Source of the DNA: an uncultured bacterium | Lineage (GTDB): Bacteria; Patescibacteriota; Minisyncoccia; UBA6257; UBA9933 | DNA length: 57,860 nucleotides | Assembly (NCBI GenBank): GCA_913009635.1 | Contig: CAJVXI010000002.1 | Location: 1 to 57,860, forward strand | Reading direction: 5' to 3' | Made by a program: the position numbers and the translations under genes | Notes under the pieces: model-generated | What the model was told of the DNA's origin: nothing | What the model saw: only the letters and a program-made list of their open reading frames with translations | The model's database searches: none | Shown: positions 1 through 56,338 of the stretch, piece by piece | Numbering within the stretch: the stretch's first letter is position 1 | Layout of the letters: each line of letters opens with the position of its first letter

Positions 1-330
1 ACAAAATCAAAGCTTCAGCGTGGTGAAACCCGCTTTCGCTCTGATAAAGTTGGAGCTTCAGCGTGGTGAAACCCGCTTTCGCTCTGATAAAGTTGGAGCT
101 TCAGCGTGGTGAAACCCGCTTTCGCTCCGACAAAGTAGAAGCTTCAGCGTGGTGAAACCCGCTTTCGCTCCTACAAAATCAAAGCTTCAGCGTGGTGAAA
201 CCCGCTTTCGCTCTGATAAAGTTGGAGCTTCAGCGTGGTGAAACCCGCTTTCGCTCTGATAAAGTTGGAGCTTCAGCGTGGTGAAACCCGCTTTCGCTCT
301 GATAAAGTTGGAGCTTTAGCGTGGTGAAAG
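1..330. repeat. 43-bp tandem repeat array: 7 full units plus a degenerate 8th that merges into the 3' flank of tRNA-Asp; continues off the left contig edge
   Basis: Unit agcttcagcgtggtgaaacccgctttcgctctgataaagttgg begins at 11, 54, 97, 140, 183, 226, 269 (312 degenerate). It has a 30-nt conserved core with a GCGUGG-UGAAA-CCCGC hairpin and a 13-nt variable linker. The period is not divisible by 3. Confidence 0.9.
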
Positions 331-404
331 CGGGGACGACCGGACTCGAACCGGCAACCTTCCGCGTGACAGGCGGATGCTCTAACCAATTGAGCTACGT
401 CCCC
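331..404 (-). tRNA. tRNA-Asp (GTC)
   Basis: Reverse complement ggggacgtagctcaattggttagagcatccgcctgtcacgcggaaggttgccggttcgagtccggtcgtccccg folds as a cloverleaf. Anticodon loop is cuGUCac. CCA is not encoded. Confidence 0.93.
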
Positions 405-2086: not shown

Positions 2087-3121
2087 ATGCTAGAGAAAAT
2101 AAAAAAATTCTTCTCAAAAGAGATAAAGGAAATAGGTGATTTAAAAAACTTAGAGCAACTAAGGGTTAAATATCTTGGTCGGAAAAGCGAATTAACCCAA
2201 ATTTTGCGTTCTCTAAAAAATTTTTCAATTGAAAAACGTCGCAAAATCGGTCCACAGGCGCAAAAACTCAAAAAAGAAATTGAAATAATATTAACTAAAA
2301 AACTTAAAGAACTAAAAGCTAAAAACTCAAAACTAAAAGTTGATATAGATATTACAAGGCCGGGTGAAAAAATTAAACTTGGTCATATTCATCCTTTAAC
2401 TAAAATTGAAGAAGAAATTCGCCAAATTTTTCTTTCAATGAATTTCTCGGTTGTTGAGGGGCCGGAAGTGGAAAATGAACATTATAATTTTGACGCTTTA
2501 AATATTCCGCCAAATCATCCAGCAAGAGACATGTGGGACACGTTTTGGCTAAAAACACAGACCAATACGGACTATACACAGATTGATACGGAAGGTCTGT
2601 ATAAGTCCGTGTCCAGTCAGTATAAGTCCATGTTACTGCGGACACATACAAGCCCGGTTCAAATTCGCTATATGGAAACTCATAATCCGCCATTTCAGAT
2701 TATTGTGCCTGGCAGGGTTTTTAGATATGAGGCGATTGATGCTTCTCATGAAATAAATTTCTATCAATTAGAAGGGCTGATAGTCGGGGAAAATGTTTCA
2801 TTGGCAAATTTTAAATCAGTAATAGAGGAATTCTTTAGAAAACTTTTTGGAAATAAAATTGAGTTTCGTTTTCGTCCAAGTTATTTTCCTTTTGTTGAGC
2901 CGGGATTAGAAGTTGATATTAAATTAGGTAAGGATTGGTTGGAGATTATGGGTGCTGGAATGGTCCATAGAAAAGTTTTTGACGCTGTCCGTTATAATCC
3001 GAATGAAGTTCGAGGAATTGCTTTTGGAGTTGGAATAGACCGCTTAGCAATGATAAAATACAACATTCCTGATATTCGTTTGTTTTATAATGGAGATTTG
3101 CGATTTATTAAACAATTCTAA
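2087..3121 (+). CDS. pheS: phenylalanine--tRNA ligase alpha subunit
   Basis: HPARDMWDTFW, LLRTHTSPVQIR, FRPSYFPFVEPG and GAGMVH class II motifs. Carries a 25-codon repeat insertion (see 2555..2629). Confidence 0.95.
   Translation: MLEKIKKFFSKEIKEIGDLKNLEQLRVKYLGRKSELTQILRSLKNFSIEKRRKIGPQAQKLKKEIEIILTKKLKELKAKNSKLKVDIDITRPGEKIKLGHIHPLTKIEEEIRQIFLSMNFSVVEGPEVENEHYNFDALNIPPNHPARDMWDTFWLKTQTNTDYTQIDTEGLYKSVSSQYKSMLLRTHTSPVQIRYMETHNPPFQIIVPGRVFRYEAIDASHEINFYQLEGLIVGENVSLANFKSVIEEFFRKLFGNKIEFRFRPSYFPFVEPGLEVDIKLGKDWLEIMGAGMVHRKVFDAVRYNPNEVRGIAFGVGIDRLAMIKYNIPDIRLFYNGDLRFIKQF
2555..2629 (+). repeat. 75-bp palindromic element, family A copy 1, in frame in pheS (TQTNTDYTQIDTEGLYKSVSSQYKS)
   Basis: acacagaccaatacggactatacacagattgatacggaaggtctgtataagtccgtgtccagtcagtataagtcc. 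About 80-90 percent identical by eye to 4330..4404 and 38856..38930. Sits between conserved DTFW and LLRTHTS. Confidence 0.85.
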
Positions 3122-3123
3122 AT

Positions 3124-5115
3124 ATGCGATTCAGTTATTTTTTAATTAAAAAATTAGCGCCAGTAGTTAAATCAAAAAATGATTTAATTGAAAAACTTAA
3201 TCTTTATTCTTTTGAGGCAGAAGATTTGGGGGGCGATGTGGTTGATATCTCTTTACCACCGAATCGATATTCTGATACGGCATCGCATTTGGGAATTGCC
3301 AAGGAAATTGCCGCGGTTTATGGTAAAAAGTTAAAAGATTTTAAAATAAAAACCATTAAATCTGTTATCAAGCATGGTTTTGCCGTGGAAATTAAAGAAA
3401 AAAAACTTTGTAAAAGAGCGGCGGCTCAATATTTTGAAGGTATAAAAATTGCTACTTCGCCGAAATGGCTGCGCGAAGTTTTAATTTCTTGCGGTTTACG
3501 GCCTATTAATAATTTAATTGATATAACCAATTATGTTACCTTAGAAATAGGTCAGCCACTCCATGCTTTCGACGTGGATAAAATGGAGGGCGAAAAATTA
3601 ATTATACGCCGTGCAAAGTTACAGGAATATTTGGAAACTTTAGATGGGAATAAATTTAATTTAGATAAAGATATTTTGGTTTTAGCTGATGAAAAAGACG
3701 CTTTAGATATAGCTGGAATTAAAGGAGGGAAAAAAGCAGAAATTATAAATAAAACAAAAAAGATTCTCCTAACTGCTTGTAATTTTGATCAGACAGCTAT
3801 TTATCAATCTTCGCGCAAGACCGGCGTGGTAACTGACGCTTCAGTTAGGTTTGCGCATGGTTTAAGCCCAGCATTGGTGGAATTAGGAATTCAAAGAGCA
3901 GGGGAGCTTATTGTTGAGCTTTGCGGTGGCCGGGCTGGAAAAACAACAGATGTCAATTTTTCTAGTTTATCTAAGAAAATAATTAAATTTGACGTTGAAA
4001 GGTTTAATAAATTCATCGGTATTAATCTTGATATTAAAACAGCCGCTGGCTACTTAAAACGGTTAGGGTTTAAAATAACTAAAAACCAAAAACTAAAAAC
4101 TAAAAGCTCGTTTTTCGTAGAGATTCCGCCTTTGCGTCTTGATATAAAAACTTTTGAAGATTTAGCCGAGGAAGTTATTAGATTATATGGCTATAATAAA
4201 TTAAAATCATCTCCGCCTCGTATTTATATAACCCCTTCGGGTTTTGAAGACGAACTTATATTAAAAGATAAAATCAGAAAAGTATTGGTTGGTTTTGGAT
4301 TGGACGAAGTTTATAATTACTCTTTTACATCACAGACTGATACGGACTATACACAGACCGATACGGAAGGTCTGTATAAGTCCGTGTCCAGTCCGTATGG
4401 GTCAGCGTTAGTAGAGTTAGAAAATCCAATCAGTTCGCAGTTTCAATATTTAAGACCATCATTATTGATTAATCTTTTAAAAAATATTAAAGATAATTTT
4501 AGGTTTTTTGATGATATAAAGATTTTTGAAATAGGAAAAACTTTTTTTAAGAATAAAAATGAAGTTAATGAAAAAAGCATGCTAGGAATTGCTATTGGTT
4601 CAAAAAATAAAGAAACGTTTTTTGAATTAAAAGGCGTAATAGAGGAATTATTTAAAAGAATTGGTTTAGTGGATTATCTTATTTTTGAGGAGAAAGGGAT
4701 TTTGTTAATAAAATCAAATAATAAAAAAATAGGTTATTTAAAAAAAGAAGAAGTAGCAGGTAAGCGTTTTTCTGCCTTTACAGAAATTAATTTAGAAGAA
4801 CTTCTTAAGTTAATTGAAGGAGAGCGTGAATATTCGCCGTTATCAAAGCATCCTTCAATTATGCGCGATATTTCAGTTTTAGTTAGTCGAAAAATAAGGA
4901 TTGGGGACATGATACGAATAATTCAAATTTCTGATTTTAAGAACATTAGAGACGTTGATTTAATTGATGAATATGACTTTCCAGATAAAAAAAGCTTCAC
5001 ATTTAGGATTATTTTTCAGGCCGATAATAAAACATTGACTGACAACGAAGTTGATAAAGAGATGAAGAAAATAACTTCTATTTTACAGCGAAAATTCAAC
5101 GCTGAAATACGCTAA
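3124..5115 (+). CDS. pheT: phenylalanine--tRNA ligase beta subunit (short 663-aa form)
   Basis: Starts 2 nt after pheS. B3/B4- and B5-like core (GQPLHAFD, IAGIKGG) and C-terminal anticodon-binding-like domain. Carries family A and KLKTK insertions. Confidence 0.9.
   Translation: MRFSYFLIKKLAPVVKSKNDLIEKLNLYSFEAEDLGGDVVDISLPPNRYSDTASHLGIAKEIAAVYGKKLKDFKIKTIKSVIKHGFAVEIKEKKLCKRAAAQYFEGIKIATSPKWLREVLISCGLRPINNLIDITNYVTLEIGQPLHAFDVDKMEGEKLIIRRAKLQEYLETLDGNKFNLDKDILVLADEKDALDIAGIKGGKKAEIINKTKKILLTACNFDQTAIYQSSRKTGVVTDASVRFAHGLSPALVELGIQRAGELIVELCGGRAGKTTDVNFSSLSKKIIKFDVERFNKFIGINLDIKTAAGYLKRLGFKITKNQKLKTKSSFFVEIPPLRLDIKTFEDLAEEVIRLYGYNKLKSSPPRIYITPSGFEDELILKDKIRKVLVGFGLDEVYNYSFTSQTDTDYTQTDTEGLYKSVSSPYGSALVELENPISSQFQYLRPSLLINLLKNIKDNFRFFDDIKIFEIGKTFFKNKNEVNEKSMLGIAIGSKNKETFFELKGVIEELFKRIGLVDYLIFEEKGILLIKSNNKKIGYLKKEEVAGKRFSAFTEINLEELLKLIEGEREYSPLSKHPSIMRDISVLVSRKIRIGDMIRIIQISDFKNIRDVDLIDEYDFPDKKSFTFRIIFQADNKTLTDNEVDKEMKKITSILQRKFNAEIR
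4075..4107 (+). repeat. A-rich KLKTK element (family B) in frame in pheT
   Basis: ataactaaaaaccaaaaactaaaaactaaaagc is read as ITKNQKLKTKS. The same cta-aaa-act-aaa frame is used in gatB, rnhB and trmD. Confidence 0.6.
4330..4404 (+). repeat. 75-bp palindromic element, family A copy 2, in frame in pheT (SQTDTDYTQTDTEGLYKSVSSPYGS)
   Basis: tcacagactgatacggactatacacagaccgatacggaaggtctgtataagtccgtgtccagtccgtatgggtca. Contains the hairpin acggactatacacagacc / ggtctgtataagtccgt. Confidence 0.85.
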
Positions 5116-5206: not shown

Positions 5207-6214
5207 ATGTTAAATATTAATTATTCACTTAAATCATTAAAGATAATCGTAGAAAAGGTAAAGCCCTCAAAAATTGTTTTAGTAAGTTCAAATAATTTAA
5301 TTCCAAAATTAAATTGGGCTATTACAGAGTTAAAAGAATTAACGCCTGTTGAAATTAAAATTATTCAGGTTCCTGATGGAGAAGTAGCGAAAGAATGGGG
5401 TGTTTTAAAAGAATTACTGAGCGATTTTATTGAAGTAGGGTTAAACAGGAAAAGTATTGTTATAGCTTTGGGGGGCGGCTCAATAACTGATTTAGTTGGT
5501 TTCGCGTCATCAATTTATCAAAGGGGTGTTCCTTATATAAATATTCCCACTACTCTTTTAGCTCAAATTGATAGTTCCATAGGTGGAAAAACAGCTATTA
5601 ATTTTTTGGATTATAAAAATCAAATAGGTTCTTTTTATAATCCAATAGCTATAATCATTGACAGCCGATTTTTAGAAACTCTAACTGAACGGCAAATTAT
5701 TGATGGCTTTGCAGAAATAATTAAGTATGGGCTAATTAAAGACCCGAGCATATTGGAAATTATAAAATCTTGTAATTTGGCTGCTTTAAGAGAAGAATCT
5801 GTTATGGAGGGTTTAATTTCAAAATCAATTAAGGTAAAAGAATATTTTATTGAAAAAGATCCGTATGATTTAAATATTAGACAAATTTTAAATTTTGGTC
5901 ATACAATTGCTCATTCACTTGAGCTTAAATATAATTTAAGCCATGGAGAAGCTGTTTTGATTGGGATGATGGAAGAGCTTAAACTTGGCGAGCAATTAGG
6001 AGAGGCAAGTCCTGAAATAAAAAATTATCTAGGCGTGCTTCTTAAAAATTTAAATATTACTCTAAATAAAAAACAGCTGAAAGTTGATTGGAAATCTATT
6101 TTACACGATAAGAAAATCTCAGGAAAAGAAATTAATTTGCCAGTTGTTAAAAAATTAGGTGAGGCAAAATTGATTAAAGTTAGATTAGATAAACTAATTT
6201 CATTAATTAAATAG
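5207..6214 (+). CDS. 3-dehydroquinate synthase family protein (sugar-phosphate cyclase superfamily)
   Basis: GGGSITDLVGFASSIYQRGVPYINIPTTLLAQIDSSIGGKTAINF, NFGHTIAHSLE and HGEAVLIGM motifs. ATG at 5207 is preferred over the TTG at 5141 used by the ORF track. Confidence 0.75.
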   Translation: MLNINYSLKSLKIIVEKVKPSKIVLVSSNNLIPKLNWAITELKELTPVEIKIIQVPDGEVAKEWGVLKELLSDFIEVGLNRKSIVIALGGGSITDLVGFASSIYQRGVPYINIPTTLLAQIDSSIGGKTAINFLDYKNQIGSFYNPIAIIIDSRFLETLTERQIIDGFAEIIKYGLIKDPSILEIIKSCNLAALREESVMEGLISKSIKVKEYFIEKDPYDLNIRQILNFGHTIAHSLELKYNLSHGEAVLIGMMEELKLGEQLGEASPEIKNYLGVLLKNLNITLNKKQLKVDWKSILHDKKISGKEINLPVVKKLGEAKLIKVRLDKLISLIK

Positions 6215-12935: not shown

Positions 12936-14465
12936 ATGACTTACATTCCTACTATTGGCTTGGAAATCCATACCCATCTCAAAACCCGCACTAAAATGTT
13001 TTGCGGTTGTGACAATGACTTTAACGAAAAGCATCCCAATATTAATGTTTGCCCGATTTGTTTGGGACACCCCGGTACTTTACCGGTTATAAACAAAAAA
13101 GCCGTTGAATCGGTTCTTAAATTAGGATTGGCATTAGGCGGAAATCCGCCGTCTGCGCCTAGTAAGGGAATATCAAAATTTGACCGTAAAAATTATTTTT
13201 ATCCGGATTTACCAAAAGGATACCAGATATCGCAATATGACCAGCCATTAATATCAGGCGGCCAATTAAACGGCATACGGCTTACAAGAATTCATTTAGA
13301 AGAAGACGCTGCGCGGCTTGCGCATCAAACTAAAAACCCCCGCCTGCCATCGCCTGATGGCGAAGTCATTGGCGGGCAGGAAAAACTAAAAACTAAAAGC
13401 TATAGCTTGGTTGACTTTAATCGTGCAGGAGTACCTTTAATGGAATTAGTAACTGAACCAGATATTAAAGACGGCAAAAAAGCAGTTGAATTCGCAAAAG
13501 AACTTCAGCTAGTTTTGCGCTATTTGGAGATTTCTGACGCAGATATGGAGAAAGGGCAAATGAGAATAGAAGCAAATATTAGTGTGTCCAAAGATGGAAA
13601 ATTAGGTACCAAGGTGGAAATAAAAAATCTTAATTCTTTTCGTGCAGCAGGAGAGGCGATTGATTACGAAATTAAAAGGCAGTCAGAGGTTTTAGATAGA
13701 GGTGAACAAGTTGAGCATGAAACTCGTGGCTGGGACGAAAACAAAAAAAATACCGTTAGTCAAAGAAGCAAAGAAAAAGCGCATGATTACCGTTATTTTC
13801 CAGAGCCGGATTTACCGCCTTTGGATTTTAACGAGTCAAACGCCATAGATTTGAGAAAATTAAGAATAGAAATTCCGGAATTACCAGCAAATAAGCGTAA
13901 GAGATTTATAGAAGAATATAGATTATCTTCAGAGCAAGTTGAGGTATTGGTTAGCGAATCGTCAACAGCCCAATATTTTGAAGAATCAGTATCAGAATTA
14001 TTGGAAGAATTACAGAGCGAAAAGAGTGAAAAGAAAAAAATTGAGGCAATGATGTTATTGTTTAATTATCTAACTAGTGATATTAGGGGATTAGCCAATG
14101 AAAAAGGGGTAAGCGTCAAAGATATAAATATTACTCCAGAAAATTTTGCGGATTTAATAGTGTTGATTATCAAAGGAGAGATTACAAGCCGTCTTGCAAA
14201 AGATATTTTAAAAGAAATGTCTTTGACCGGACTTGATCCGTGGCAGATTATTCAAGATAAGGGTTTGGGTCAGATTTCTGACGAGAAAATTATTAAGGAG
14301 ATTATTAAAGAAATTGTAAGCGAAAATCAAAAAGCGGTAGAAGATTATAAAAAGGGTAAAGAAAATGTTTTGCAGTTTCTTTTTGGTCAAGTAATGGGTA
14401 AATTAAAAGGCCAAGCTAACCCCGATGTTTTAAGAAATCTTTTACAAGAGGAATTAAGGAAGTAG
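12936..14465 (+). CDS. gatB: aspartyl/glutamyl-tRNA amidotransferase subunit B
   Basis: PTIGLEIH, CPICLGHPGTLPV, YFYPDLPKGYQISQ and VDFNRAGVPLMELV motifs. ATG at 12936 is preferred. The 3' end overlaps convergent miaA by 50 nt. Confidence 0.93.
   Translation: MTYIPTIGLEIHTHLKTRTKMFCGCDNDFNEKHPNINVCPICLGHPGTLPVINKKAVESVLKLGLALGGNPPSAPSKGISKFDRKNYFYPDLPKGYQISQYDQPLISGGQLNGIRLTRIHLEEDAARLAHQTKNPRLPSPDGEVIGGQEKLKTKSYSLVDFNRAGVPLMELVTEPDIKDGKKAVEFAKELQLVLRYLEISDADMEKGQMRIEANISVSKDGKLGTKVEIKNLNSFRAAGEAIDYEIKRQSEVLDRGEQVEHETRGWDENKKNTVSQRSKEKAHDYRYFPEPDLPPLDFNESNAIDLRKLRIEIPELPANKRKRFIEEYRLSSEQVEVLVSESSTAQYFEESVSELLEELQSEKSEKKKIEAMMLLFNYLTSDIRGLANEKGVSVKDINITPENFADLIVLIIKGEITSRLAKDILKEMSLTGLDPWQIIQDKGLGQISDEKIIKEIIKEIVSENQKAVEDYKKGKENVLQFLFGQVMGKLKGQANPDVLRNLLQEELRK
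13338..13400 (+). repeat. GC-rich palindromic element (family C) plus KLKTK element, in frame in gatB
   Basis: cccgcctgccatcgcctgatggcgaagtcattggcgggcagg followed by aaaaactaaaaactaaaagc. Arms cccgcc/ggcggg and gccatc/gatggc. Translated as NPRLPSPDGEVIGGQEKLKTKS, just before conserved SLVDFNRAG. Confidence 0.75.
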
Positions 14466-16270: not shown

Positions 16271-18121
16271 TTAGATAACTTTATCCTCAATTTCTTTTAA
16301 GATTTTTCCAATAAATTTTTCTAATTTAACAACATTTTGCTTGCCCGCCGAAGCCTTGGCGAAGACGGGCTTGTTGTCTCTTGAGCGGACTGCAATAGTG
16401 TTTGATTTCATTTCTTTTTCGCCGACAATTAAAATATACGGAATTTTTTGAAGTTCAGCTTCACGAATTCTTTTTCCCAAGGTTTCATTATTATTATCAA
16501 TTTCAGCGCGAATATTATTATTTTCCAATTCTTGAAGAACTTTTTTCCCATAATTATCAAATTTTTCTGATATTGGAATTATTATTGTTTGAACAGGGGA
16601 GAGCCAAACTGGCAATGCGCTGGCATAATGCTCAATCAGGATGCCAATAAATCTTTCAAGCGAACCAAGTATTGCTCGATGAATCATAACTGGATTTTGT
16701 TTATTTCCTTTTTTATCAATATAAAAAGCATTAAATCTTTGCGGCATTGAGAAATCAACTTGAATTGTTCCTAATTGCCAATTTCTTCCAATAGCATCTT
16801 TTATATTAAATTCTATTTTTGGTCCGTAAAAAGCGCCTTCTCCTTCTTTTATTCCATAATTTAATTTTTTTTCTTTTAATGCCTTATTTAATGATTCTGT
16901 TGCTTTTTTCCAGGAATCATTGTCGCCAATATATTTTTCCGGCTTAGTTGCTATAAATATTTCATATTCATTAAAACCAAATGCTTTATAAACATCTATA
17001 GCGTAATCAACCATATTAATAATTTCATCATTTAGCTGTTTTGGCGTACAAAATGAATGAGCATCATCTTGAGTAAAAGAGCGGGCTCTAAATAGGCCGT
17101 GAAGCACTCCTGATAATTCATGACGATGTACTAAGCCAAATTCAGCGTATCTAACTGGCAGGTCACGATAAGAATGAAGTTTTTCTTTATAGATAAGAGT
17201 TGTTCCAGGGCAATTCATCGGCTTTACTGCGAATTCCTGGTCATCAATATTTATAAAATACATATCATCTTTGAATTTTTCCCAATGTCCAGAAGTTTCC
17301 CATAATTTTTTATTTAATATAATAGGCGTTTTTACTTCTTTATATCCGCGTTTTTCGTTTTCTTTTCTTATATAGTTTTCAATCTGGCTGTATAAAGTTG
17401 TTCCTTTTGCGTGCCAAAAAGGGAAACCAGGTCCTTCGTCGTGAAATGAGAATAAATTCAGTTCTTTTCCAAGTTTCCTGTGATCTCTTTTTTCCGTTTC
17501 TTCCTGTAATTTTAGATATTTATCCAATTCTTTTTTATTATTAAAAGCTACGCCATAAATTCTGGTAAGCATTTTATTTTTTTCATCGCCTTTCCAATAA
17601 GCGCCGGCAACTCTTGTTAATTTAAAAGCATCTGGATTTATTTCGGAAGTTGACTTCACGTGAGGTCCTTTACACAAGTCAATAAAATCACCGCTTTTAT
17701 AAATAGAAACCGATTTCAATTTTTGGGAAGTCGGACTTCCTTTGGAAGACCGACTTCCTGACGACAATTCTTTAATAAGTTCTAATTTATAGGGTTCATT
17801 TTTAAAACCCTTTTTTGCTTCAACAAAAGAAAGAGATTCTTTTTTGAATTTCAAATTTTGTTTTATTAGTTCGCGTATCCGTTTCTCTAATTTTGGCAAG
17901 TCGTTTTCAGTTAAATTCAATATAAGGACATCCGATGTCCTTATATTATTTTTATTAATATTTGGGACATCGGATGTCCCCATATTAAAGTCAAAGTCGT
18001 AGTAGAACCCATTTTCAATAACAGGTCCCATACCCAATTTAGCTTTTGGAAATTTTTCCAAAACTGCCATTGCCATTAAATGAGAAAGTGAATGCCTAAT
18101 TTTTTCCAGATTATCTTTCAT
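16271..18121 (-). CDS. thrS: threonine--tRNA ligase
   Basis: SHLMAMAV editing-domain motif, class II core FRARSFTQDDAH and GPKIEF, C-terminal anticodon-binding domain. Carries two in-frame palindrome pairs. Confidence 0.95.
   Translation of the reverse strand: MKDNLEKIRHSLSHLMAMAVLEKFPKAKLGMGPVIENGFYYDFDFNMGTSDVPNINKNNIRTSDVLILNLTENDLPKLEKRIRELIKQNLKFKKESLSFVEAKKGFKNEPYKLELIKELSSGSRSSKGSPTSQKLKSVSIYKSGDFIDLCKGPHVKSTSEINPDAFKLTRVAGAYWKGDEKNKMLTRIYGVAFNNKKELDKYLKLQEETEKRDHRKLGKELNLFSFHDEGPGFPFWHAKGTTLYSQIENYIRKENEKRGYKEVKTPIILNKKLWETSGHWEKFKDDMYFINIDDQEFAVKPMNCPGTTLIYKEKLHSYRDLPVRYAEFGLVHRHELSGVLHGLFRARSFTQDDAHSFCTPKQLNDEIINMVDYAIDVYKAFGFNEYEIFIATKPEKYIGDNDSWKKATESLNKALKEKKLNYGIKEGEGAFYGPKIEFNIKDAIGRNWQLGTIQVDFSMPQRFNAFYIDKKGNKQNPVMIHRAILGSLERFIGILIEHYASALPVWLSPVQTIIIPISEKFDNYGKKVLQELENNNIRAEIDNNNETLGKRIREAELQKIPYILIVGEKEMKSNTIAVRSRDNKPVFAKASAGKQNVVKLEKFIGKILKEIEDKVI
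17726..17758. repeat. pair of 15-bp palindromes in frame in thrS
   Basis: ggaagtcggacttcc and ggaagaccgacttcc, 3 nt apart, translated as SGSRSSKGSPTS. Confidence 0.8.
17924..17982. repeat. pair of 19-bp palindromes in frame in thrS
   Basis: aaggacatccgatgtcctt and tgggacatcggatgtccca, with complementary centre bases (inverted copies), 20 nt apart. Translated as GTSDVPNINKNNIRTSDVL. Confidence 0.85.
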
Positions 18122-22826: not shown

Positions 22827-22860
22827 CTTTTACATTAAAATTGTAAATAATGAATATAAA

Positions 22861-22996
22861 TAAGCATCAAATCTCAAGCACCAAATAACAGATAAGCACC
22901 AAATTCTATCCGTCAGTTGGCGGACTAAACACGGGTTTCGGTCATTAGAATTTCGGTCATTGAAATTTATTTGTTATTTGGAATTTGTTATTTGGG
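22861..22996. mobile_element. MITE-like palindromic element, copy A (~135 bp)
   Basis: Ends aagcaccaaataacagataagcacc / ggaatttgttatttggg are inverted repeats. The core ctatccgtcagttggcggactaaacacgggtttcggtcatt is shared with copies at 30281 (inverted core) and 46431. Confidence 0.6.
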
Positions 22997-23006
22997 ATTT
23001 TTATCT

Positions 23007-23721: not shown

Positions 23722-24414
23722 ATGGATTTTTCAAAATTAGAAGAAATAATTGGGCATCAGTTTCAGAATCAAAAACTTTTAAAAGAATCATTAACTCATC
23801 GTTCTTATTTGAACGAGAATCCTTCATGGGGCGTGCCTCATAACGAACGCTTGGAGTTTTTAGGTGATGCGGTTTTAGAATTAGTAGTGTCGGAATATCT
23901 TTTTAAAAAATATCCTGATTATAATGAAGGTCAGCTTACAAGCGTTAGAGCGGCATTGGTTAATTATCAGATGTTGGGAAAATCCGCCAAAAATATGGAA
24001 TTGGATAAGTTTGTTTTACTTTCTCGTGGAGAAGCCAAAGATACCGGAAAAGCAAGAGAAGTAATTTTAGCTAATGCTATTGAATCGCTTATTGGCGCTA
24101 TTTATTTAGACGCAGGTTATTCTATAATCCAATCTTTTATTGAAAAAGTTATTTTATCAAATCTTCAGGATGTCATTGAAAATGGATTATATAGAGATCC
24201 TAAGAGTTTGCTTCAGGAAATTATTCAAGAAAAACTTAAAATCACTCCGAATTATAAAGTTCTAGGCGAAATCGGGCCTGACCATAAAAAGATTTTTAAA
24301 GTCGGTGTATTTTTTGATGACGATTTAGCTGCTGAAGGAGAAGGAGCTTCTAAGCAGGAGGCGGAAGTTGAGGCAGCGAAGAATGCGCTGAAAACATTAG
24401 CCACTAGCGACTAG
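23722..24414 (+). CDS. rnc: ribonuclease III
   Basis: RNase III signature ERLEFLGDAVLE. C-terminal dsRBD (GPDHKKIFKVGV, GASKQEAEVEAAKNAL). Confidence 0.95.
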   Translation: MDFSKLEEIIGHQFQNQKLLKESLTHRSYLNENPSWGVPHNERLEFLGDAVLELVVSEYLFKKYPDYNEGQLTSVRAALVNYQMLGKSAKNMELDKFVLLSRGEAKDTGKAREVILANAIESLIGAIYLDAGYSIIQSFIEKVILSNLQDVIENGLYRDPKSLLQEIIQEKLKITPNYKVLGEIGPDHKKIFKVGVFFDDDLAAEGEGASKQEAEVEAAKNALKTLATSD

Positions 24415-24463
24415 CTACTAGTGATTAGTGTTAAAATAAAATTTCCTAGTGGCTAGTGGCTAA
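24397..24463. repeat. REP-like stop-rich inverted repeat supplying the rnc stop
   Basis: ttagccactagcgactagctactagtgattag ... cctagtggctagtggctaa. Confidence 0.8.
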
Positions 24464-28188: not shown

Positions 28189-28857
28189 ATGAAATTCAAT
28201 ATTATTACCATATTCCCGCATATCTTTGATTCTTACCTAAATGAATCAATTCTTAAGCGCGCTCAGAAAAAGGGTTTAATTAAAATTAAGATTTATGATT
28301 TACGTAAATTTACCAAAGATAAACACAGGAAGGTGGACGACAAGCCATTTGGAGGGGGACCGGGAATGGTAATTAAAATCGAGCCATTAGTAAAAGCAAT
28401 AAGCTCGATTTTAAAACTAAAAACTAAAAACCAAAAACTAAAAACTAAGATAGTGTTATTTACTCCAGGCGGAAAACAGTTTGACAATGAGACAGCGATT
28501 AATTTAGCAAGAAATTATGATAATTTAATTTTAATAGCTGGTCGTTACGAAGGAATTGATGAACGAATTAAAAAAGTGCTTCATAATTCAGGACTCAAGA
28601 TTCATGAGTTGTCTATAGGTCCTTATGTTTTAACAGGAGGCGAATTACCGGCAATGACCATAATTGACGCGGTTTCCCGTCAGATTAAAGGGGTATTAGG
28701 CAAGAGAGAATCACTTGAAGAAAAGCGATTTGGCATTGGCATGCCAGTTTATACAAGACCGGAAATATTTATTTATAAGGGCAAAAAATACCGAGTGCCG
28801 AAAGTTTTATTGTCTGGGAATCATAAAAAAATAGAGGAATGGCATAGAATAAAGTGA
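28189..28857 (+). CDS. trmD: tRNA (guanine37-N1)-methyltransferase
   Basis: MKFNIITIFPHIF, DDKPFGGGPGMV, GRYEGIDERI, LTGGELPAM. Confidence 0.93.
   Translation: MKFNIITIFPHIFDSYLNESILKRAQKKGLIKIKIYDLRKFTKDKHRKVDDKPFGGGPGMVIKIEPLVKAISSILKLKTKNQKLKTKIVLFTPGGKQFDNETAINLARNYDNLILIAGRYEGIDERIKKVLHNSGLKIHELSIGPYVLTGGELPAMTIIDAVSRQIKGVLGKRESLEEKRFGIGMPVYTRPEIFIYKGKKYRVPKVLLSGNHKKIEEWHRIK
28413..28449 (+). repeat. double KLKTK element (family B) in frame in trmD
   Basis: aaaactaaaaactaaaaaccaaaaactaaaaactaag is read as LKLKTKNQKLKTK. Confidence 0.7.
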
Positions 28858-29836: not shown

Positions 29837-30276
29837 TGTTAAATGATATTCAAAAACTTCGTGAAACAACAGGTGCTGGCGTAATGGAATGCAAAAAGGC
29901 ACTAGGGGAAGCTGGCGACGATTTTGATAAAGCAATTACTATTATTCGCAAAAAGAGTTTAGCTGGCGCCACGAAAAGAGGTGGACGAGCTACAGGAGCC
30001 GGATTATTAGAGTCATATATTCACAATGAACGGGTTGGAGTTTTACTTGAGCTCAGATGTGAAACTGATTTTGTGGCTCGAAATTCATTATTTAGAGAAT
30101 TAGCTCATAATCTGGCAATGCAAATTGCTGCCGTAGGTTCTGAAAACGTTGAAGAATTACTAAAATCGCCTTACATAAAAGACGAATCTTTAATAGTAGA
30201 TGCTTTAATTAAGCAAGCAATCGCTAAGTTGGGAGAGAATATAAAAATTGAGAGGTTTTGCAGGTATGAATTGTAA
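29836..30276 (+). CDS. tsf: elongation factor Ts, very short form (146 aa)
   Basis: UBA-like N-terminus [19 protein letters not shown], then [23 protein letters not shown]. Confidence 0.85.
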
Positions 30277-30280
30277 ATAA

Positions 30281-30411
30281 AATTCCAAGCATCAAGCACC
30301 AAATAACAAATAAGCACAAATGAACAAAATTCCAATAACCAAAACCCGTCGTGTTTAGTCCGCCAGCTGGCGGATAGAATTTGTTTGGGATTTGGAATTT
30401 GTAATTTGGGG
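30281..30411. mobile_element. MITE-like palindromic element, copy B (core inverted relative to copy A)
   Basis: aattccaagcatcaagcaccaaataacaaataagcac ... aaacccgtcgtgtttagtccgccagctggcggatag ... ggaatttgtaatttgggg. Confidence 0.6.
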
Positions 30412-30424
30412 TTTATAAAAATTT

Positions 30425-30793
30425 ATGTACAACTTCATTCTTCAAATTTCTTTAATGGCAAGTTTGGGTATAATGATTTATTTGGTTGCTCGAGGAGTAT
30501 CGCGAGTCAGCGACACTATTGATGAAGGCATTCAAAACAATCATAAAAATGTATTTGATAAATTTGTTGATTTATTGCCTTTAGAAAAAATTGATTTGAT
30601 GATTAGTGAGTATTTTGAAAAGATATTAAGGAAAATAAAATTAGTGTTAATGAAATGGGATAATATAGTTACAAACTATTTAGACAAAATTAAAAAAACA
30701 AACGGTAATGGCAAAAATAATGGAGAGAAAAAACCAAGTTTATTTTCCGAAGATTCAACCTCTAAAGAAGAAGGTAGCTCAAAAACCGATTAA
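30425..30793 (+). CDS. hypothetical single-pass membrane protein
   Basis: N-terminal TM helix ILQISLMASLGIMIYLVA. No recognisable motif. Confidence 0.5.
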   Translation: MYNFILQISLMASLGIMIYLVARGVSRVSDTIDEGIQNNHKNVFDKFVDLLPLEKIDLMISEYFEKILRKIKLVLMKWDNIVTNYLDKIKKTNGNGKNNGEKKPSLFSEDSTSKEEGSSKTD

Positions 30794-36549: not shown

Positions 36550-36581
36550 TAAGCCGACGGTTTTTGATAAAATAAAGCGAA

Positions 36582-36699
36582 ATGATAAAAACTATATTTA
36601 CTACAATATTCACGATCGTAAAATTTGTAGTAAATTTATAATGATAAAAACTATATTTACTACAATATTCACGATCGTAAAATTTGTAGTAAATTTATA
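36582..36699. repeat. perfect 59-bp tandem duplication, each unit carrying an 11-bp inverted repeat
   Basis: atgataaaaactatatttactacaatattcacgatcgtaaaatttgtagtaaatttata x2. The IR is atttactacaa-N17-ttgtagtaaat around cgatcg. Confidence 0.9.
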
Positions 36700-38453: not shown

Positions 38454-39482
38454 ATGCATAAACCCGTTCTTTTAAATGAAACTATAAAAATTCTTGATCC
38501 GAAGCCGGGAGAATTTTTTATTGACGGAACAATTGGCAGTGGGGGACACGCAGTTAAAATTTTTGAGAAAATTATGCCAAACGGCAAATTATTAGGAATA
38601 GATTTAGATGAAAATAATTTGAAAATTGTTAGAGAAAAAATTTTGGCAGGAACTAGTAATCAGGAACTAGTAAATAGGAATAAATTAATTTTAGAACAGG
38701 GCAATTACGCTGACTTGCCGGAAATTTTAAAAAAACACAATTTACCGAAAGCAAGTGGATTAATTCTTGATTTGGGATTTTCTTCAGAGCAGTTGGAGTT
38801 AGGAAAAGGTTTTAGTTTTCAGAAAAATGAATTATTGGATATGCGTTACAACACTTCACAGACCAACACAGACTACACACGGATCAATACGGATGGTCAG
38901 TATAAGTCCGCGTTAAGTCAGTATAAGTCAGAGTTGACGGCGATGGAAGTAATAAATACTTTTAATGAGAAAGATTTGGCAGACATTATTTATAAATACG
39001 GAGAAGAAAGGTATTCACGAAGAATTGCGAAAAAAATTATTGAACAAAGGAAAAGAAAATTAATAAAAACAACTTTTGATTTAGTTGAAGTTATTAAAAA
39101 GTCCGTGCCAAGAAATTATGAAAGAGGACGTATCAGTCCCGCAACAAGAACTTTTCAGGCATTAAGGATTTACGTTAACCATGAATTAGAGAATTTAGAA
39201 AAATTATTAAAAAACATAGATCAAATTATAAAAGGTCGAATCCGCCTACGCGCCTCTTTCGCCGAAGTGGCTGCGAAGGCCGAGCAAGGCTTCGGCGGGC
39301 GAGTAGTAATAATTTCTTTTCACTCTTTAGAAGACCGTATAGTAAAAAATTATTTTAGAGAGTTAAAAAAGGATAAAAAAGCGGAAATTTTAACAAAAAA
39401 ACCAATTAGGGCCACAAATGAGGAGATAAAAAGCAATCATAGAGCAAGATCTGCTAAATTAAGGGGGGTTGTCTTGAAATGA
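38454..39482 (+). CDS. rsmH: 16S rRNA (cytosine1402-N4)-methyltransferase
   Basis: HKPVLLNE, DGTIGSGGH, LDLGFSS, SFHSLEDR. Carries a family A insertion and a GC-rich insertion. Confidence 0.93.
   Translation: MHKPVLLNETIKILDPKPGEFFIDGTIGSGGHAVKIFEKIMPNGKLLGIDLDENNLKIVREKILAGTSNQELVNRNKLILEQGNYADLPEILKKHNLPKASGLILDLGFSSEQLELGKGFSFQKNELLDMRYNTSQTNTDYTRINTDGQYKSALSQYKSELTAMEVINTFNEKDLADIIYKYGEERYSRRIAKKIIEQRKRKLIKTTFDLVEVIKKSVPRNYERGRISPATRTFQALRIYVNHELENLEKLLKNIDQIIKGRIRLRASFAEVAAKAEQGFGGRVVIISFHSLEDRIVKNYFRELKKDKKAEILTKKPIRATNEEIKSNHRARSAKLRGVVLK
38856..38930 (+). repeat. 75-bp palindromic element, family A copy 3, in frame in rsmH (SQTNTDYTRINTDGQYKSALSQYKS)
   Basis: tcacagaccaacacagactacacacggatcaatacggatggtcagtataagtccgcgttaagtcagtataagtca. 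Same orientation and reading frame as the pheS and pheT copies. Confidence 0.85.
39236..39305 (+). repeat. GC-rich palindromic insertion in frame in rsmH
   Basis: ggtcgaatccgcctacgcgcctctttcgccgaagtggctgcgaaggccgagcaaggcttcggcgggcgagta. Arms cgccgaag/cttcggcg. Read as RIRLRASFAEVAAKAEQGFGGR, just before conserved VVIISFHSLEDR. Confidence 0.65.
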
Positions 39483-39875: not shown

Positions 39876-41525
39876 ATGAAATGGCGTTTTATATTTTTAC
39901 TAATTTTCTTTGGGAGTTTGTATACGCTCCTAATTCATAATATATACGATCTTCAGCTGGAAAAGTGGGAATATTATTCCGGTAAAGCTGAGGCTCAGCA
40001 GAGAGCAGGCGGTGAATTAGAGCCAGTCAGGGGCAATATTTATTTTACAGATAAAAATAGTAATTTGATTCCAGCTGTTTTAAATAAAGAATATTCTTCA
40101 ATCTATGCGGTTCCCAAAGAATTTCAAAATAATGACTACGATTATAATAATGACTTTGAAAAATTATCTCAAATCGTTAATATTTCTATTGAAGAATTAG
40201 AAAAGAAACTTAACAAACCAGACGACCTTTATGAATTATTAGTTCAGAAAGCGACTTTTGAACAATTAAGAAAAATAAAAGAACTTAAGCTTAAGGGAAT
40301 TTATATTGAAAAACAACTTCTTAGGTTTTATCCTTTTGGAAATTTAGCTTCTCATGTTTTAGGTTTTATCGGTCCCGCGGATAACGGCGTCAAATTAATC
40401 GGCCATTATGGGATCGAATCTTATTTTAATAAATTATTAACAGGGAAAACAGGAGAGGTTAAAGGCGATACTTTAATAAAGCCGGAAAACGGGGAAAATC
40501 TAGTTTTGACAATAGACAGAAATATTCAAGCTCAAGCTGAAGAAATATTAAATAAACTTATTCAAAAATATGAAGCTGTTGGTGGTACAATAATTGTTCA
40601 AGAGCCGGCTACGGGGAAAATTTTGGCAATGGTGAATTTTCCTAATTTTAATCCGAATAATTATTCATTATCGGAAATTGGAGATTTTATTAATCCGTCA
40701 GTCCAGTTTGTTTATGAGCCTGGCTCAGTTTTTAAAATTTTTACGATGTCCGCTGGAATTGATAGCGGAAAAATTACTCCTGAAACCACTTTTTATGACA
40801 GTGGTTCGGTTACATTAAATAATCGGACAATTCATAACTGGAAATTAAAATCTTTCGGAACTCAAACAATGACTGGCGTTATTGAGAATTCTATCAATAC
40901 TGGTGCTGTTTTTGCTGAACAAAAAACCGGCCACGATATTTTTTATAATTATTTAATTAAATTTGGATTTAACAAGTTAACAAACATTAATTTACCCGGC
41001 GAAGTGGTGGGGAATATCAATAATTTAAAAAACGGCCGTGATATAAATTTCGCAACCGCTTCTTTTGGACATGGCATTTCAATAACGCCCATAGAATTAA
41101 TTAATGCGGTTTCTGCAATTGCCAATAAAGGTATTCTTATGAGGCCATATATTTTAGCGGATAAAATTCCTGAAACAATTCAACAAATTATTACTCGTGG
41201 AACTGCTGGAACAGTTACTAAAATGATAGTTTCGGCTGTTAAAAAAAATGTTGCCGCGGATATTTCCAATTATTCTGTTGCCGGAAAAACCGGAACAGCT
41301 TATATTCCTGATTTTATTAATGGAGGGTACACTGACGACGTAATAAACACTTTTGTCGGTTTTGCTCCTGCTTCAGACGCAAAATTCACAATTTTAATAA
41401 AATTAGATAAACCAGCGGGTGCTCCTTTTGCAGGTCTTACCGTTGCGCCGGCTTTTCGAAGTTTAGCGCAATTTATTTTAAATTATTATAATATAGCACC
41501 GGATGAATTAGGTATTAGTGATTAG
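39876..41525 (+). CDS. ftsI: penicillin-binding protein 2/FtsI-type transpeptidase
   Basis: SxxK in GSVFKIF, SxN in ENSINTG, and KTGTA. Confidence 0.9.
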   Translation: MKWRFIFLLIFFGSLYTLLIHNIYDLQLEKWEYYSGKAEAQQRAGGELEPVRGNIYFTDKNSNLIPAVLNKEYSSIYAVPKEFQNNDYDYNNDFEKLSQIVNISIEELEKKLNKPDDLYELLVQKATFEQLRKIKELKLKGIYIEKQLLRFYPFGNLASHVLGFIGPADNGVKLIGHYGIESYFNKLLTGKTGEVKGDTLIKPENGENLVLTIDRNIQAQAEEILNKLIQKYEAVGGTIIVQEPATGKILAMVNFPNFNPNNYSLSEIGDFINPSVQFVYEPGSVFKIFTMSAGIDSGKITPETTFYDSGSVTLNNRTIHNWKLKSFGTQTMTGVIENSINTGAVFAEQKTGHDIFYNYLIKFGFNKLTNINLPGEVVGNINNLKNGRDINFATASFGHGISITPIELINAVSAIANKGILMRPYILADKIPETIQQIITRGTAGTVTKMIVSAVKKNVAADISNYSVAGKTGTAYIPDFINGGYTDDVINTFVGFAPASDAKFTILIKLDKPAGAPFAGLTVAPAFRSLAQFILNYYNIAPDELGISD

Positions 41526-41546
41526 CCACTAGCCACTAGTGATTAG
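41517..41546. repeat. REP-like repeat supplying the ftsI stop
   Basis: agtgattagccactagccactagtgattag. Confidence 0.8.
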
Positions 41547-42841: not shown

Positions 42842-43072
42842 ATCTTTTCTCGCCAGTGATTTCCACTCAGATAAATTATCCTCATTCGTCGTTAGAAGTA
42901 ACGGAAAATATCGAACTCAACCTCTCCGCCAGCTGGCGGATCGGGATTCAGACAGCGACATTTTCTTATTTCTTTCCTCCTCTTTCGGTAATTTACCGCA
43001 TCCGACTTCGCCTTGACGAAGTTATGGCGGGCGGGTGACTTCGTTCCAATATGCTGGCTACAGAAAAGATTT
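42840..43072. repeat. 233-bp composite element bounded by 17-19-bp inverted repeats; contains a family C copy and a MITE-core fragment
   Basis: Arms aaatcttttctcgccag / ctggctacagaaaagattt. Internal ccgccagctggcgg, and accgcatccgacttcgccttgacgaagttatggcgggcgggt (42995..43036). Confidence 0.7.
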
Positions 43073-44372: not shown

Positions 44373-45005
44373 TCACGAGCGTCTCTCAAGCGCCTGTCCG
44401 AGAGTTTCTTCATCAGCAAATTCAATTTCACCGCCCGTTGGGATACCGCGTCCCAAACGGGTTATTTTTTTGGCAAAATCTTTGAGTTCTTTTGTGATTA
44501 TCATTGCGTTGAGGTCTCCGTAAGTTGTGGGATTGGTAGCAATAATAATTTCTTCGGCTTTTGTCCCGAGTTCTTTTTTAATAATGTTTTTTAGGTGGTT
44601 TAATCGCAGTTTTTGGGCGCTTTTCATATCTCCGCTTTTTGTTAATTCACCCAAGACCAAATACCTGCCTTTGAATTTTTTAGTTCTTTCAATGGAAATC
44701 AAATCAGTTTCTTTTTCAAGAACCATAAAGATGTTGTTTTGGCGGTTTTTATCTTGGCATATATCACATAGATTTTCTTTGCCTGCCCCGTTAGAGGATT
44801 TTTCTCTAATGGGGCCTGAGTGGACAAAAAAACACATAGAACATATTTTTAAGTATTTTAAATCTGAAATCACTTTAGCTGTTTCTTCAATTTGATTTTT
44901 ACCTTTGTTGATTAAATAAAAAGCCAGCCGGGTGGACTGGCGTAATCCAATAGAGGGAAGCTTGGAGAATATCGCGATGAAATTTTTAATAGGATCCGGT
45001 AACAT
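44373..45005 (-). CDS. recR: recombination protein RecR
   Basis: LPSIGLRQSTRLAFYL HhH motif, C4 zinc finger CSMC...CDIC, Toprim IATNPTTYGD. ATG at 45005 is preferred because the GTG at 45017 lies in a REP-like repeat. Confidence 0.9.
   Translation of the reverse strand: MLPDPIKNFIAIFSKLPSIGLRQSTRLAFYLINKGKNQIEETAKVISDLKYLKICSMCFFVHSGPIREKSSNGAGKENLCDICQDKNRQNNIFMVLEKETDLISIERTKKFKGRYLVLGELTKSGDMKSAQKLRLNHLKNIIKKELGTKAEEIIIATNPTTYGDLNAMIITKELKDFAKKITRLGRGIPTGGEIEFADEETLGQALERRS
44786..44814. repeat. family E hairpin in frame inside the RecR zinc-finger loop
   Basis: ccccgttagagga-ttttt-ctctaatgggg. It lengthens the spacer between the two Cys pairs to 21 aa. Confidence 0.75.
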
Positions 45006-45011
45006 ATGGCG

Positions 45012-45085
45012 AGCCACTAGCCATTAGGGTTTAGCCACTAGGAAATAACACTAATTACTAGTGGCTAGTCGCTAGTGGCTAATTA
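45012..45085. repeat. REP-like stop-rich inverted repeat between recR and dnaB
   Basis: agccactagccattagggtttagccactagg ... ctagtggctagtcgctagtggctaa. Confidence 0.8.
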
Positions 45086-48046: not shown

Positions 48047-48523
48047 ATGACATCAGAACAAAAAGAAGAGAAAAAGGATCCCGCTTCAAAATGCGAGAAA
48101 TACAAAGAGGAAGCAGAGGAGTATTTAGATGGATGGAAACGAGCTAAAGCGGATTTAGCGAATTATAAGAAAGAAGAGGCCAAGCGTTTTATGGAAATGG
48201 TTAAATTTGCCAGCGAGGATTTAATCAGAGAAATGATAGTTATTTTAGACAGCTTTGATTTGGGATTGGCTGCGTTGGAAAAAGACGGAAAAGCCGAAAA
48301 AGGATTGTATTTAATACGCACTCAATTAGAAGACGCTTTAAGAAAAAGAGGACTGGAAAGAGTTATAATTTCAGTTGGACAGCCGTTTGATGCTGCTTTA
48401 CAAGAAGCAATTGCTGAAGTAGAGTCGGACAAATCTAGTGGCATTGTTATTGAAGAAGTGGAACGAGGTTATCTTTTAAACGGAAAACTTATTAGACCAG
48501 CGAGGGTAAAAGTTTCAAAATAA
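48047..48523 (+). CDS. grpE: nucleotide exchange factor GrpE
   Basis: RAKADLANYKKE, DSFDLGL, and the C-terminal beta domain GYLLNGKLIRPARV. Confidence 0.92.
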   Translation: MTSEQKEEKKDPASKCEKYKEEAEEYLDGWKRAKADLANYKKEEAKRFMEMVKFASEDLIREMIVILDSFDLGLAALEKDGKAEKGLYLIRTQLEDALRKRGLERVIISVGQPFDAALQEAIAEVESDKSSGIVIEEVERGYLLNGKLIRPARVKVSK

Positions 48524-48635
48524 AAATAGTTTATAGTTTATAGTTTATAGTTTTTAGTTTCAGTTTTTTAGTTTTCAGTTAAACCATTAACTAATTAACC
48601 AAAACTATTAACTAAAAACCAATAACTTTATTAAT

Positions 48636-56172: not shown

Positions 56173-56338
56173 AGCTTTTAATAGTTAATTAATAATTATC
56201 CTATCGACGTCATGGTTTAGAAAACCATCAGGATGCCTTAATTTTACAGCAATTTGATTACTCTTGTCAACTCGTCAAGTGTTAATGCCCTGTGGATAAC
56301 TTTTTGCGTTTTCTTGACAGGTGTCTTATAATAAAAAT

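Follow-up and report, generated by a model that had tools for sequence, protein, structure and literature searches.

How does one short palindromic sequence come to lie, in the same reading frame, inside three unrelated essential genes of a single genome? The question is raised by contig CAJVXI010000002.1 of assembly GCA_913009635.1, whose 57,860 nucleotides (hereafter the window) come from an uncultured, ultra-small bacterium of the Paceibacteria, within the Patescibacteria. The nearest named relatives of this organism are metagenome-assembled genomes (MAGs) of Paceibacterota, Wolfebacteria and Jorgensenbacteria. A preliminary description, made from the sequence alone, had reported a repeat of about 75 nt in pheS, pheT and rsmH, and all three copies were located where it placed them. 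The repeat, referred to here as family A, is probably a non-autonomous palindromic element that behaves like the Rickettsia palindromic elements (RPEs) and survives as translated, disordered loops carried as passengers by its host proteins.

Family A copies in the window

The pheS copy (2555..2629, + strand; a 75-nt core, with the palindrome running to about 2633) lies in the gene for the phenylalanyl-tRNA synthetase alpha subunit (2087..3121, + strand) and encodes TQTNTDYTQIDTEGLYKSVSSQYKS between DTFWLK and MLLRTHTSP. The pheT copy (4330..4404, + strand), in the gene for the beta subunit (3124..5115, + strand), encodes SQTDTDYTQTDTEGLYKSVSSPYGS between YNYSFT and ALVELENPIS. The rsmH copy (38856..38930, + strand), in the gene for the 16S rRNA m4C1402 methyltransferase (38454..39482, + strand), encodes SQTNTDYTRINTDGQYKSALSQYKS between LDMRYNT and ELTAMEVIN. 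The three copies are 78–92% identical to one another. A repeat search returned them as one 80-nt family with ungapped identities of 88% and 81% to the pheS copy. In blastn alignments the pheS copy matches that of pheT at 92.6% over 68 nt and that of rsmH at 84.9% over 73 nt; the preliminary description had estimated 80–90 percent by eye. The most similar pair, the pheS and pheT copies (92%), is separated by only 1.7 kb in adjacent genes.

An nhmmer profile of the three copies matched these three sites alone in the window (E 5e-26 to 6e-24; next best match, E = 3.1), a degree of repetition far above chance. In 1.3 Mb of DNA from 80 other bacterial genomes the best E value reached was 3.8, and a profile built from eight copies, including those from relatives described below, gave no match below E = 5.4; this control DNA consists of loci recovered via universal PheS motifs, mostly from genomes outside the candidate phyla radiation (CPR).

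The element and its 40-nt flanks at pheS and pheT are matched exactly in three further independent assemblies, European Nucleotide Archive ERZ1742238 (a 109.5-kb SPAdes contig) and ERZ909563 and ERZ909565 (marine metagenome PRJDB5792, MEGAHIT), whose pheS-bearing contigs are 99.7–99.9% identical to the window. The rsmH element is intact in a truncated RsmH, P0126, from yet another assembly (n = 1; labels in L and P denote other loci and proteins). The copies are not an assembly artefact, and the concern over misassembly raised in the preliminary description is thereby answered.

Palindrome, folding and reading frame

The three-copy profile also matches the reverse complements of the copies themselves (E 2e-11 to 2e-7), and family A is therefore palindromic. 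The preliminary description had proposed two half-repeats of about 15 nt with approximate complements, forming an imperfect hairpin; the hairpin stands, while the unit scheme is better replaced by units of about 10.5 nt with the core AYACRGAY. The left arm holds four such units at spacings of 10, 11 and 10 nt and the right arm holds their complements at spacings of 10 and 11 nt, giving four forward and three to four reverse units or, equivalently, 2+2 units of 21 nt, each of 7 codons. Since the 3′ flank always starts with RYGT, which is complementary to the 5′ ACAC, the palindrome extends some 4 nt further 3′ than the 75-nt core and measures about 79–81 nt. The arms are internally repetitive, which led RNAalifold into a shifted register, and the full palindrome register was consequently scored explicitly. 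Among eight aligned copies 85.6% of cells pair in this register, versus 10–32% when the partner is slid by 1–3 columns.

Segments of 86 nt fold on the sense strand at −28.1 (pheS), −37.6 (pheT) and −18.2 (rsmH) kcal/mol, with z scores of −5.0, −6.0 and −2.1, and on the antisense strand at −32.7, −38.8 and −28.4 kcal/mol, with z scores of −5.5, −5.7 and −4.1. Of the three hairpins, that of pheT is the best preserved and that of rsmH the most decayed.

All three copies lie on the + strand in host frame 0 (offset mod 3 = 0); a shared orientation and frame had been given in the preliminary description. This sense frame is the sole one of six that is open in every window copy. Two of the copies are also open in frame +1 (HRPIRTIHRLIRKVCISPCPV...), and two in frame −2 (TYTDWTRTYTDLPY...). 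The reading frame is also informative about whether the inserts might be removed from the RNA or protein in the manner of introns or inteins. CPR bacteria carry insertions in their rRNA genes, and the base of the family A hairpin coincides with the insert boundaries. However, 75 nt is far below the size of group I or group II introns and 25 residues are too few for an intein; Cys/Ser...His-Asn intein ends are absent from the inserts; the internal loops are symmetric rather than of the bulge-helix-bulge type; and Rfam recognizes tRNAs alone in the window and no family at the element sites. A length strictly divisible by three and a stop-free sense frame would, moreover, be needless in a sequence that is excised. 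Removal, like the assembly artefact to which the agreement of independent assemblies speaks, is an extremely improbable account of the copies.

Insertions relative to orthologous proteins

Alignment with orthologues outside the clade confirms that the segments are insertions wedged between conserved motifs, as had been claimed. PheS of the P. aeruginosa/E. coli type aligns up to DTFYF and again from MLLRTHTSP, with 1–2 residues at the site where the window protein has about 25, and T. maritima RsmH passes from residue 133 to residue 135 across the insert site. The PheS loop comprises 16 residues in T. thermophilus, and among 60 non-CPR pheS genes it encodes 6 residues in 39 and 13 in 9. The addition of exactly 25 codons, as first described, holds for the shared core and not for the net gain, which relative to insert-free relatives is about 22–24 amino acids in PheS and RsmH and about 13–15 in PheT. 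The gain in PheT is small because the element displaces native residues. The element-free PheT proteins of three relatives (L005, L092 and L093) have a native stretch of about 13–16 residues between YSF and LVELENP, which in the window protein and in one further PheT, P0121, is largely replaced by the element (about 12 residues displaced).

AlphaFold models computed from deep alignments place the inserts in regions of low confidence. For PheS the mean predicted local distance difference test score (pLDDT) is 77.8 and falls below 50 over residues 149–184. For RsmH the mean pLDDT is 86.3 and the predicted template modeling score 0.85, with pLDDT below 50 solely at residues 136–145 and 148–158, which belong to family A, and at 276–278, the end of a second, unrelated insert. 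The inserts are thus predicted to be unstructured coil in otherwise confident models.

Family A in related genomes

The search of relatives suggested in the preliminary description was productive at both the nucleotide and the protein level. Nucleotide searches covering both strands found family A at the same site as in the window in pheS of L004 (E 1e-13) and in rsmH of L090 (E 3e-14) and L091 (E 8e-18), at a new site in an FtsQ-like gene of L087 (E 1e-19), and in two genes of L005, namely recG (75 nt, TQTKTDYTQTKTEIPYESVLSPRKS; E 3e-14) and ligA (a more divergent copy; E 9e-5). A HMMER profile of the three window peptides, run against 1.84 billion representative proteins, gave three matches: the PheT P0121, 53% identical to the window PheT and with its element at the corresponding site, the LepA-like GTPase P0122, and the ROK-type kinase P0123. 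Related elements also occupy the RsmH site in P0125, P0127 and P0140. At least eight different host proteins therefore carry family A (PheS, PheT, RsmH, RecG, LigA, FtsQ-like, LepA-like and the ROK kinase). The window insertions predate the window genome, since related copies are present at these three sites in relatives.

Every copy is read from the sense strand in one frame, giving a peptide of the form T-Q/R-T-x-x-D-x-T ... Y/R-K/E-S. Nucleotide search alone gives six distinct gene sites, and the chance of all of them sharing one of six possible states of frame and orientation is (1/6)^5 = 1e-4; with the count restricted to the three stop-free states it is (1/3)^5 = 4e-3.

Other searches delimit the family. 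The exact core pattern ATACGGAWGGTCWGTATAAGTCCG had no match in Genome Taxonomy Database (GTDB) species representatives or Joint Genome Institute (JGI) metagenomes, and a looser core pattern matched three JGI contigs, two of which are the L005 recG locus again and one of which is new. Concatenated 25-residue peptides gave no match in a word-indexed protein search, whereas the HMMER search, which uses no word index, did match. Nothing was found in the viral contigs scanned.

Relationships among copies and turnover of inserts

The rsmH genes of the window and L090 are 83–87% identical at the nucleotide level, whereas their orthologous elements are about 69–77% identical, depending on the alignment. 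The window rsmH copy is in fact nearer to the window pheS copy (84%) than to its L090 orthologue, and the window pheS copy is equally close (84%) to the ftsQ copy of L087, an unrelated metagenome contig. In L005 the elements in recG, ligA and pheS belong to different subfamilies, 67–73% identical over partial lengths, and the recG copy is nearer to the window copies (77–80%) than to its own genome-mates. In these alignments copy similarity follows neither genome phylogeny nor insertion site. Several proliferating subfamilies, perhaps together with a degree of gene conversion, would be expected to give such a pattern, which recalls that of RPE-1 to RPE-10.

The same comparisons could be read as concerted evolution, in which old, vertically inherited loop inserts have been homogenized by RecA-mediated gene conversion between dispersed or neighboring copies with no transposition at all. 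The presence of elements at the same sites in relatives (PheS of L004, PheT of P0121, RsmH of P0125, P0127 and P0140), the proximity of the 92%-similar pheS and pheT copies, and the greater likeness of the window rsmH copy to its pheS genome-mate than to its orthologue are all consistent with this. Gene conversion, however, cannot account for the initial arrival of a copy in at least eight unrelated host genes. The divergence of the three L005 elements indicates that homogenization is not general, and the L005 PheT lacks an element at the window's site. As a full explanation concerted evolution is therefore unlikely, although it probably contributes alongside insertion without replacing it.

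Turnover of inserts was measured on a global alignment of the window with L090, which spans 5.4 kb of synteny at 81% identity. Intragenic insertions or deletions of at least 12 nt measure 63, 39 and 12 nt, all multiples of three, and intergenic ones measure 87, 91, 33, 52, 101 and 40 nt, four of the six not being multiples of three. The 63- and 39-nt differences are GC-rich hairpins (−26 kcal/mol) with CCGCC...GGCGG ends. In-frame hairpins thus turn over between close relatives, as seen here for hairpins other than family A.

Constraint on the element and its peptide

If the hairpin were maintained for its own sake, its pairs should be seen to covary. Among 27 pairs in the eight copies there is one double change, and column shuffles score at least as well; changes in the hairpin mostly break pairs. 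In view of this lack of covariation, the hairpin is best regarded as an inherited, decaying property that is not kept by compensatory evolution. Variable columns are spread evenly over codon positions 1, 2 and 3 (11, 14 and 14, of 25 each), and codon differences comprise 103 synonymous and 312 nonsynonymous changes, approximately the neutral ratio. This flat variation suggests a peptide without detectable purifying selection beyond the need to remain open and in frame. The composition of the element is foreign to its host genes. Its GC content is 44–49%, compared with 34% for the genome, and it relies on codons that are rare elsewhere (AAG 100% versus 16%, CAG 100% versus 36%, TCC 46% versus 10%, and ACG 36% versus 10%).

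A functional nucleic-acid signal, either an mRNA hairpin acting in pausing, stability or RNase III cleavage or an array of 8-mers on one face of the DNA for a binding protein, with the peptide as a by-product, would account for several features. The predicted hairpins are strong, the unit spacing of 10–11 nt is about one helical turn, the unit cores are invariant across distant genomes, non-orthologous copies are 78–84% identical, and RNase III is encoded in the window. In addition to the absence of covariation, however, the rsmH copy reaches only z = −2.1 on the mRNA strand, none of the copies is followed by a terminator-like tail, and the AYACRGAY 8-mer is not enriched in the window outside the elements, where it occurs four times versus about six expected (13 of its 17 occurrences are inside elements). 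The host genes are functionally unrelated, and the corresponding loops of relatives hold different sequences, including a tandem repeat that forms no hairpin. We regard such a signal as quite improbable.

The peptide could alternatively be the selected part, an adaptive module such as a shared interaction or localization loop, and its single frame in every copy and its hydrophilic, Tyr/Thr/Ser-rich composition would suit that role. Yet the near-neutral substitutions, the codons rare for the host and the pLDDT below 50 all speak against it, as do close relatives that have an unrelated sequence, or none, at those sites, so that there is very little likelihood of such a module.

Origin and persistence of the copies

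The preferred explanation, a palindromic repeat of RPE-like behavior, can be stated as follows. Family A, with its 75–81 nt and its four forward and three to four inverted units, would belong to a superfamily spread through the Paceibacteria, and its copies would be generated by a copy-and-paste or recombinational process. Since nearly all of such a genome is coding and essential, the sole copies to persist would be those whose length is a multiple of three, which occupy the sense strand in its single stop-free frame, a hydrophilic one (rich in T, Q, D, N, Y, K and S), and which fall in permissive surface loops. The insert would then be transcribed and translated with its host protein as a tolerated disordered loop of about 25 residues. 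Subsequently the palindrome would decay, and a site might later lose, expand or re-acquire inserts. We infer that family A itself has been mobile, that its inserts are translated, and that it is selfish, conferring no benefit on the host.

Several observations weigh against this explanation. No direct repeat abuts any of the eight copies, whose boundaries are uncertain by about 3 nt, as a target-site duplication would, and no pair of empty and filled sites was found for family A; for these two reasons we infer its transposition rather than see it. Neither the 58-kb window, whose gene content is housekeeping genes together with a TIR protein, an S24 peptidase and a methylase, nor the called genes in the flanks of related loci include a mobilizing enzyme or transposase. 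Only three copies are available within this genome's window. About 100 kb of relevant sequence contained no intergenic copy, as is expected at a coding density of about 90%. Same-site copies in distant relatives (PheT 53% and RsmH 75% identical) fit old vertical inheritance equally well. Lastly, the strong conservation of the unit cores between distant genomes and the 10.5-nt periodicity could suggest protein binding.

Comparison with known repeat families

The preliminary description likened the repeat to the RPEs, and at the level of behavior the likeness is close. RPE-1 to RPE-10 (Ogata et al. 2000; summarized in PMC10969869 and PMC1779305) and family A are dispersed palindromic repeats in several subfamilies, inserted in frame in unrelated housekeeping genes of bacteria with reduced genomes. 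In both, the peptide frame is conserved, the positions occupied are ones that the protein fold can tolerate, and orthologous insertions are common to different species. The two have PheT in common as a host protein, since PheT of all Rickettsia contains an RPE-7 insert of 63–84 bp (PMC1779305). RPEs, however, belong to the Alphaproteobacteria, measure 100–150 bp and are abundant in intergenic and coding regions alike (PMC1779305), whereas family A is found in Patescibacteria/Paceibacteria, measures 75–81 nt, has arms with a periodicity of about 10.5 nt and has so far no intergenic copies, and it resides in loops that act as hot-spots throughout the clade and harbor unrelated hairpins and tandem repeats as well. 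The comparison was made by description, and we assume no sequence homology between the two. Given its length, its host lineage and, so far, the lack of intergenic copies, family A is an analogue of the RPEs rather than a member of that family.

[quoted passage not shown] Family A has terminal inverted repeats in the sense that an imperfect inverted repeat, ACAC...RYGT, spans it from end to end. It differs in being a palindrome throughout rather than terminal inverted repeats around a core, in that all known copies are intragenic, and in having neither a target-site duplication in eight copies nor a parent insertion sequence or transposase in the window. Repetitive extragenic palindromic sequences (REPs) mobilized by REP-associated tyrosine transposases are 20–40 bp long, extragenic and marked by a GTAG or CGTC tag (PMC3733652). 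They share with family A the proliferation of short palindromes that have no coding capacity of their own, but family A is at least 75 nt long, intragenic and begins with ACAC, and no window copy has GTAG or CGTC. With no transposase in the window and no target-site duplication, family A is filed under neither the MITEs nor the REPs. PARCELs, in which an amphipathic motif of 25 residues is arrayed in tandem within ORFs of no assigned function, often membrane-targeted, and which are thought to move within and between genomes (PMC2996958), also have a 25-residue coding unit whose DNA shows dyad symmetry; family A, unlike these, is a single hydrophilic unit in the conserved enzymes PheS, PheT and RsmH.

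The preliminary description was aware of no comparable element in CPR-like bacteria, and full-text literature searches found none for CPR, Patescibacteria, Parcubacteria or Paceibacteria, many papers in subscription journals lying outside their coverage. In-frame selfish palindromes have so far been treated as a near-peculiarity of Rickettsia, and a 2024 review of MITEs presents the RPEs as exceptional, with similar processes elsewhere only conjectured (PMC10969869). An independent family in the Patescibacteria points to convergence between two very different lineages with reduced genomes, down to the host gene PheT, and suggests that where intergenic space is scarce the loops of proteins serve as a refuge for repeat DNA. 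Family A and its kin account for a large part of the differences in length seen among conserved CPR proteins. Their insert sites can mislead alignments and phylogenies, and they mark permissive loops in phenylalanyl-tRNA synthetase and RsmH. The tryptic peptide TQTNTDYTQIDTEGLYK and filled and empty alleles offer handles on how new peptide segments enter essential proteins.

Hot-spot loops in the Paceibacteria

The loops that carry family A were compared in 120 PheS relatives, 61–74% identical to the window PheS, and in 117 RsmH relatives. The DTFW...LLRTHTSP loop is the single dominant length-variable site of PheS. It ranges from 5 to 44 residues and has at least eight extra residues in 74 of the 120 proteins. 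In RsmH the family A site has a basal length (17–19 residues between anchors) in 53 of 117 proteins and is longer in the others. Expansion recurs at two more sites of the protein, and at many others it is confined to single sequences.

The occupants of these loops are heterogeneous. Some are family A-like peptides (T.T.AD.T...RKSA). L093 has a GC-rich double hairpin (−35 kcal/mol, z −6), and the PheS loop of L092 (PheS of GCA_964362385.1; 2316-2378) is occupied by four tandem copies of the heptanucleotide GAAATCC, which do not form a hairpin. Gain or loss of GAAATCC units in numbers not divisible by three would shift the reading frame of the essential pheS. An insert may itself be nested, P0020 having 10 residues more than P0026 at the tip of the hairpin. 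Insert types are patchy on a weakly resolved PheS tree, and this neighbor-joining tree is too star-like to separate vertical inheritance from recurrent gain of insert types.

The pattern is in keeping with inserts being gained or expanded often and then sifted by selection for sites that tolerate them, and it argues against a dedicated site-specific system. Hot-spot loops of the clade see a much broader turnover of in-frame repeats and hairpins, of which family A makes up one part. A more far-reaching view, which we hold to be possible though somewhat doubtful, is that there is an ongoing flux across the clade, in which cassettes of in-frame hairpins and short repeats pass through a few such loops of essential proteins, with sites re-occupied repeatedly and cassettes exchanged between genomes, in the Paceibacteria and perhaps the CPR more widely, family A being one lineage among these cassettes. 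Were this true, the flux would imply a dedicated hairpin-targeting mobilization or recombination mechanism new to science, and it could imply a use for the cassettes, either in RNA-level tuning of essential-gene expression or in diversification of protein surfaces.

Other repeats and neighboring features

A second hairpin family, GC-rich and with CCGCC...GGCGG ends, occurs in the window within rsmH (39237-39299), within gatB (13326-13400), and at 54728-54764 and about 42996-43035 (intergenic). The pattern CCGCC-N8-38-GGCGG is found three times in the window versus 0.19 times expected. The rsmH member is a 63-nt in-frame insert encoding the peptide RIRLRASFAEVAAKAEQGFGG, absent from L090 and flanked by an imperfect 6-nt direct repeat (GGTCGA / GGGCGA). 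Conversely, the Mur ligase gene of L090 contains a 39-nt in-frame GC-rich hairpin (5753-5791) that the window lacks. These hairpins look like a family currently active in the lineage.

Unrelated in-frame hairpins are found in the threonyl-tRNA synthetase gene (ORF 16271-18121, minus strand) at 17895-18005 and 17665-17775. One folds at −42 kcal/mol (GGGACATCCGATGTCCC ... GGACATCGGATGTCC) and encodes the peptide MGTSDVPNINKNNIRTSDVLI, and there is a second hairpin (GGAAGTCGGTCTTCC/GGAAGTCCGACTTCC). In recR a hairpin at 44725-44835 is located within the zinc-finger loop. An A-rich short-period repeat, AACTAAAAnCTAAAAAC, lies in the coding regions of pheS (2310-2348), pheT (4077-4115) and trmD (28415-28453), and also flanks the gatB hairpin at 13330 and 13385. 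It is translated as loops rich in K, L, N and T, its complement is intergenic at 48522-48580, and it may represent another loop-encoding repeat type. In the penicillin-binding protein (PBP) gene of L090, positions 3880-3925 encode ETQTNADLTRTYAEN, which resembles the left arm of family A at the nucleotide level and gives a weak hidden Markov model match; the window PBP gene has the AT-rich EFQNNDYDYNNDFEK, of identical length, at the corresponding place (about 40110-40160). The L090 stretch may be a decayed half-element becoming an ordinary loop, and it was not used as evidence.

Between genes, the repeat AAATTCCAAGCACCAAGCACCAAATAA and its complement form segments of about 70–150 nt in the window (22850-23004 and 30266-30427) and in L090 (3167-3337 and 5256-5397); their occurrence at non-syntenic intergenic positions in the two suggests a mobile family. 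Intergenic hairpins built on the TAGCCAC heptamer are also present in the window, for example at 24396-24433, 41507-41546 and 45046-45090. A perfect 59-nt tandem duplication with a 46-nt inverted repeat (36581-36698) is located in the intergenic region upstream of a gene for an HD-domain protein. At the start of the window, positions 1-372 hold an array of 43-nt tandem repeats that overlaps tRNA-Asp (330-404, minus strand). Positions 1-236 do not align to L001, which is otherwise 99.7% identical, and are either a variable end or an assembly artefact.

A protein of the 23S_rRNA_IVP/bAvd family is encoded just upstream of the window (L001 2295-3206). In relatives, PD-(D/E)XK domains (PF13366) are embedded in RecG (L005 13273-15927) and fused to the LepA-like protein P0122 at its N-terminus; such cases show housekeeping genes of the clade with larger insertions, of domains. 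Near the other end of the window, the gene for a ThsB-like TIR protein (55735-56172, minus strand) adjoins those for an S24 (LexA-like) peptidase (56321-56965) and an N6/N4 DNA methylase (56996-57823), a cluster that may constitute a small defense island.

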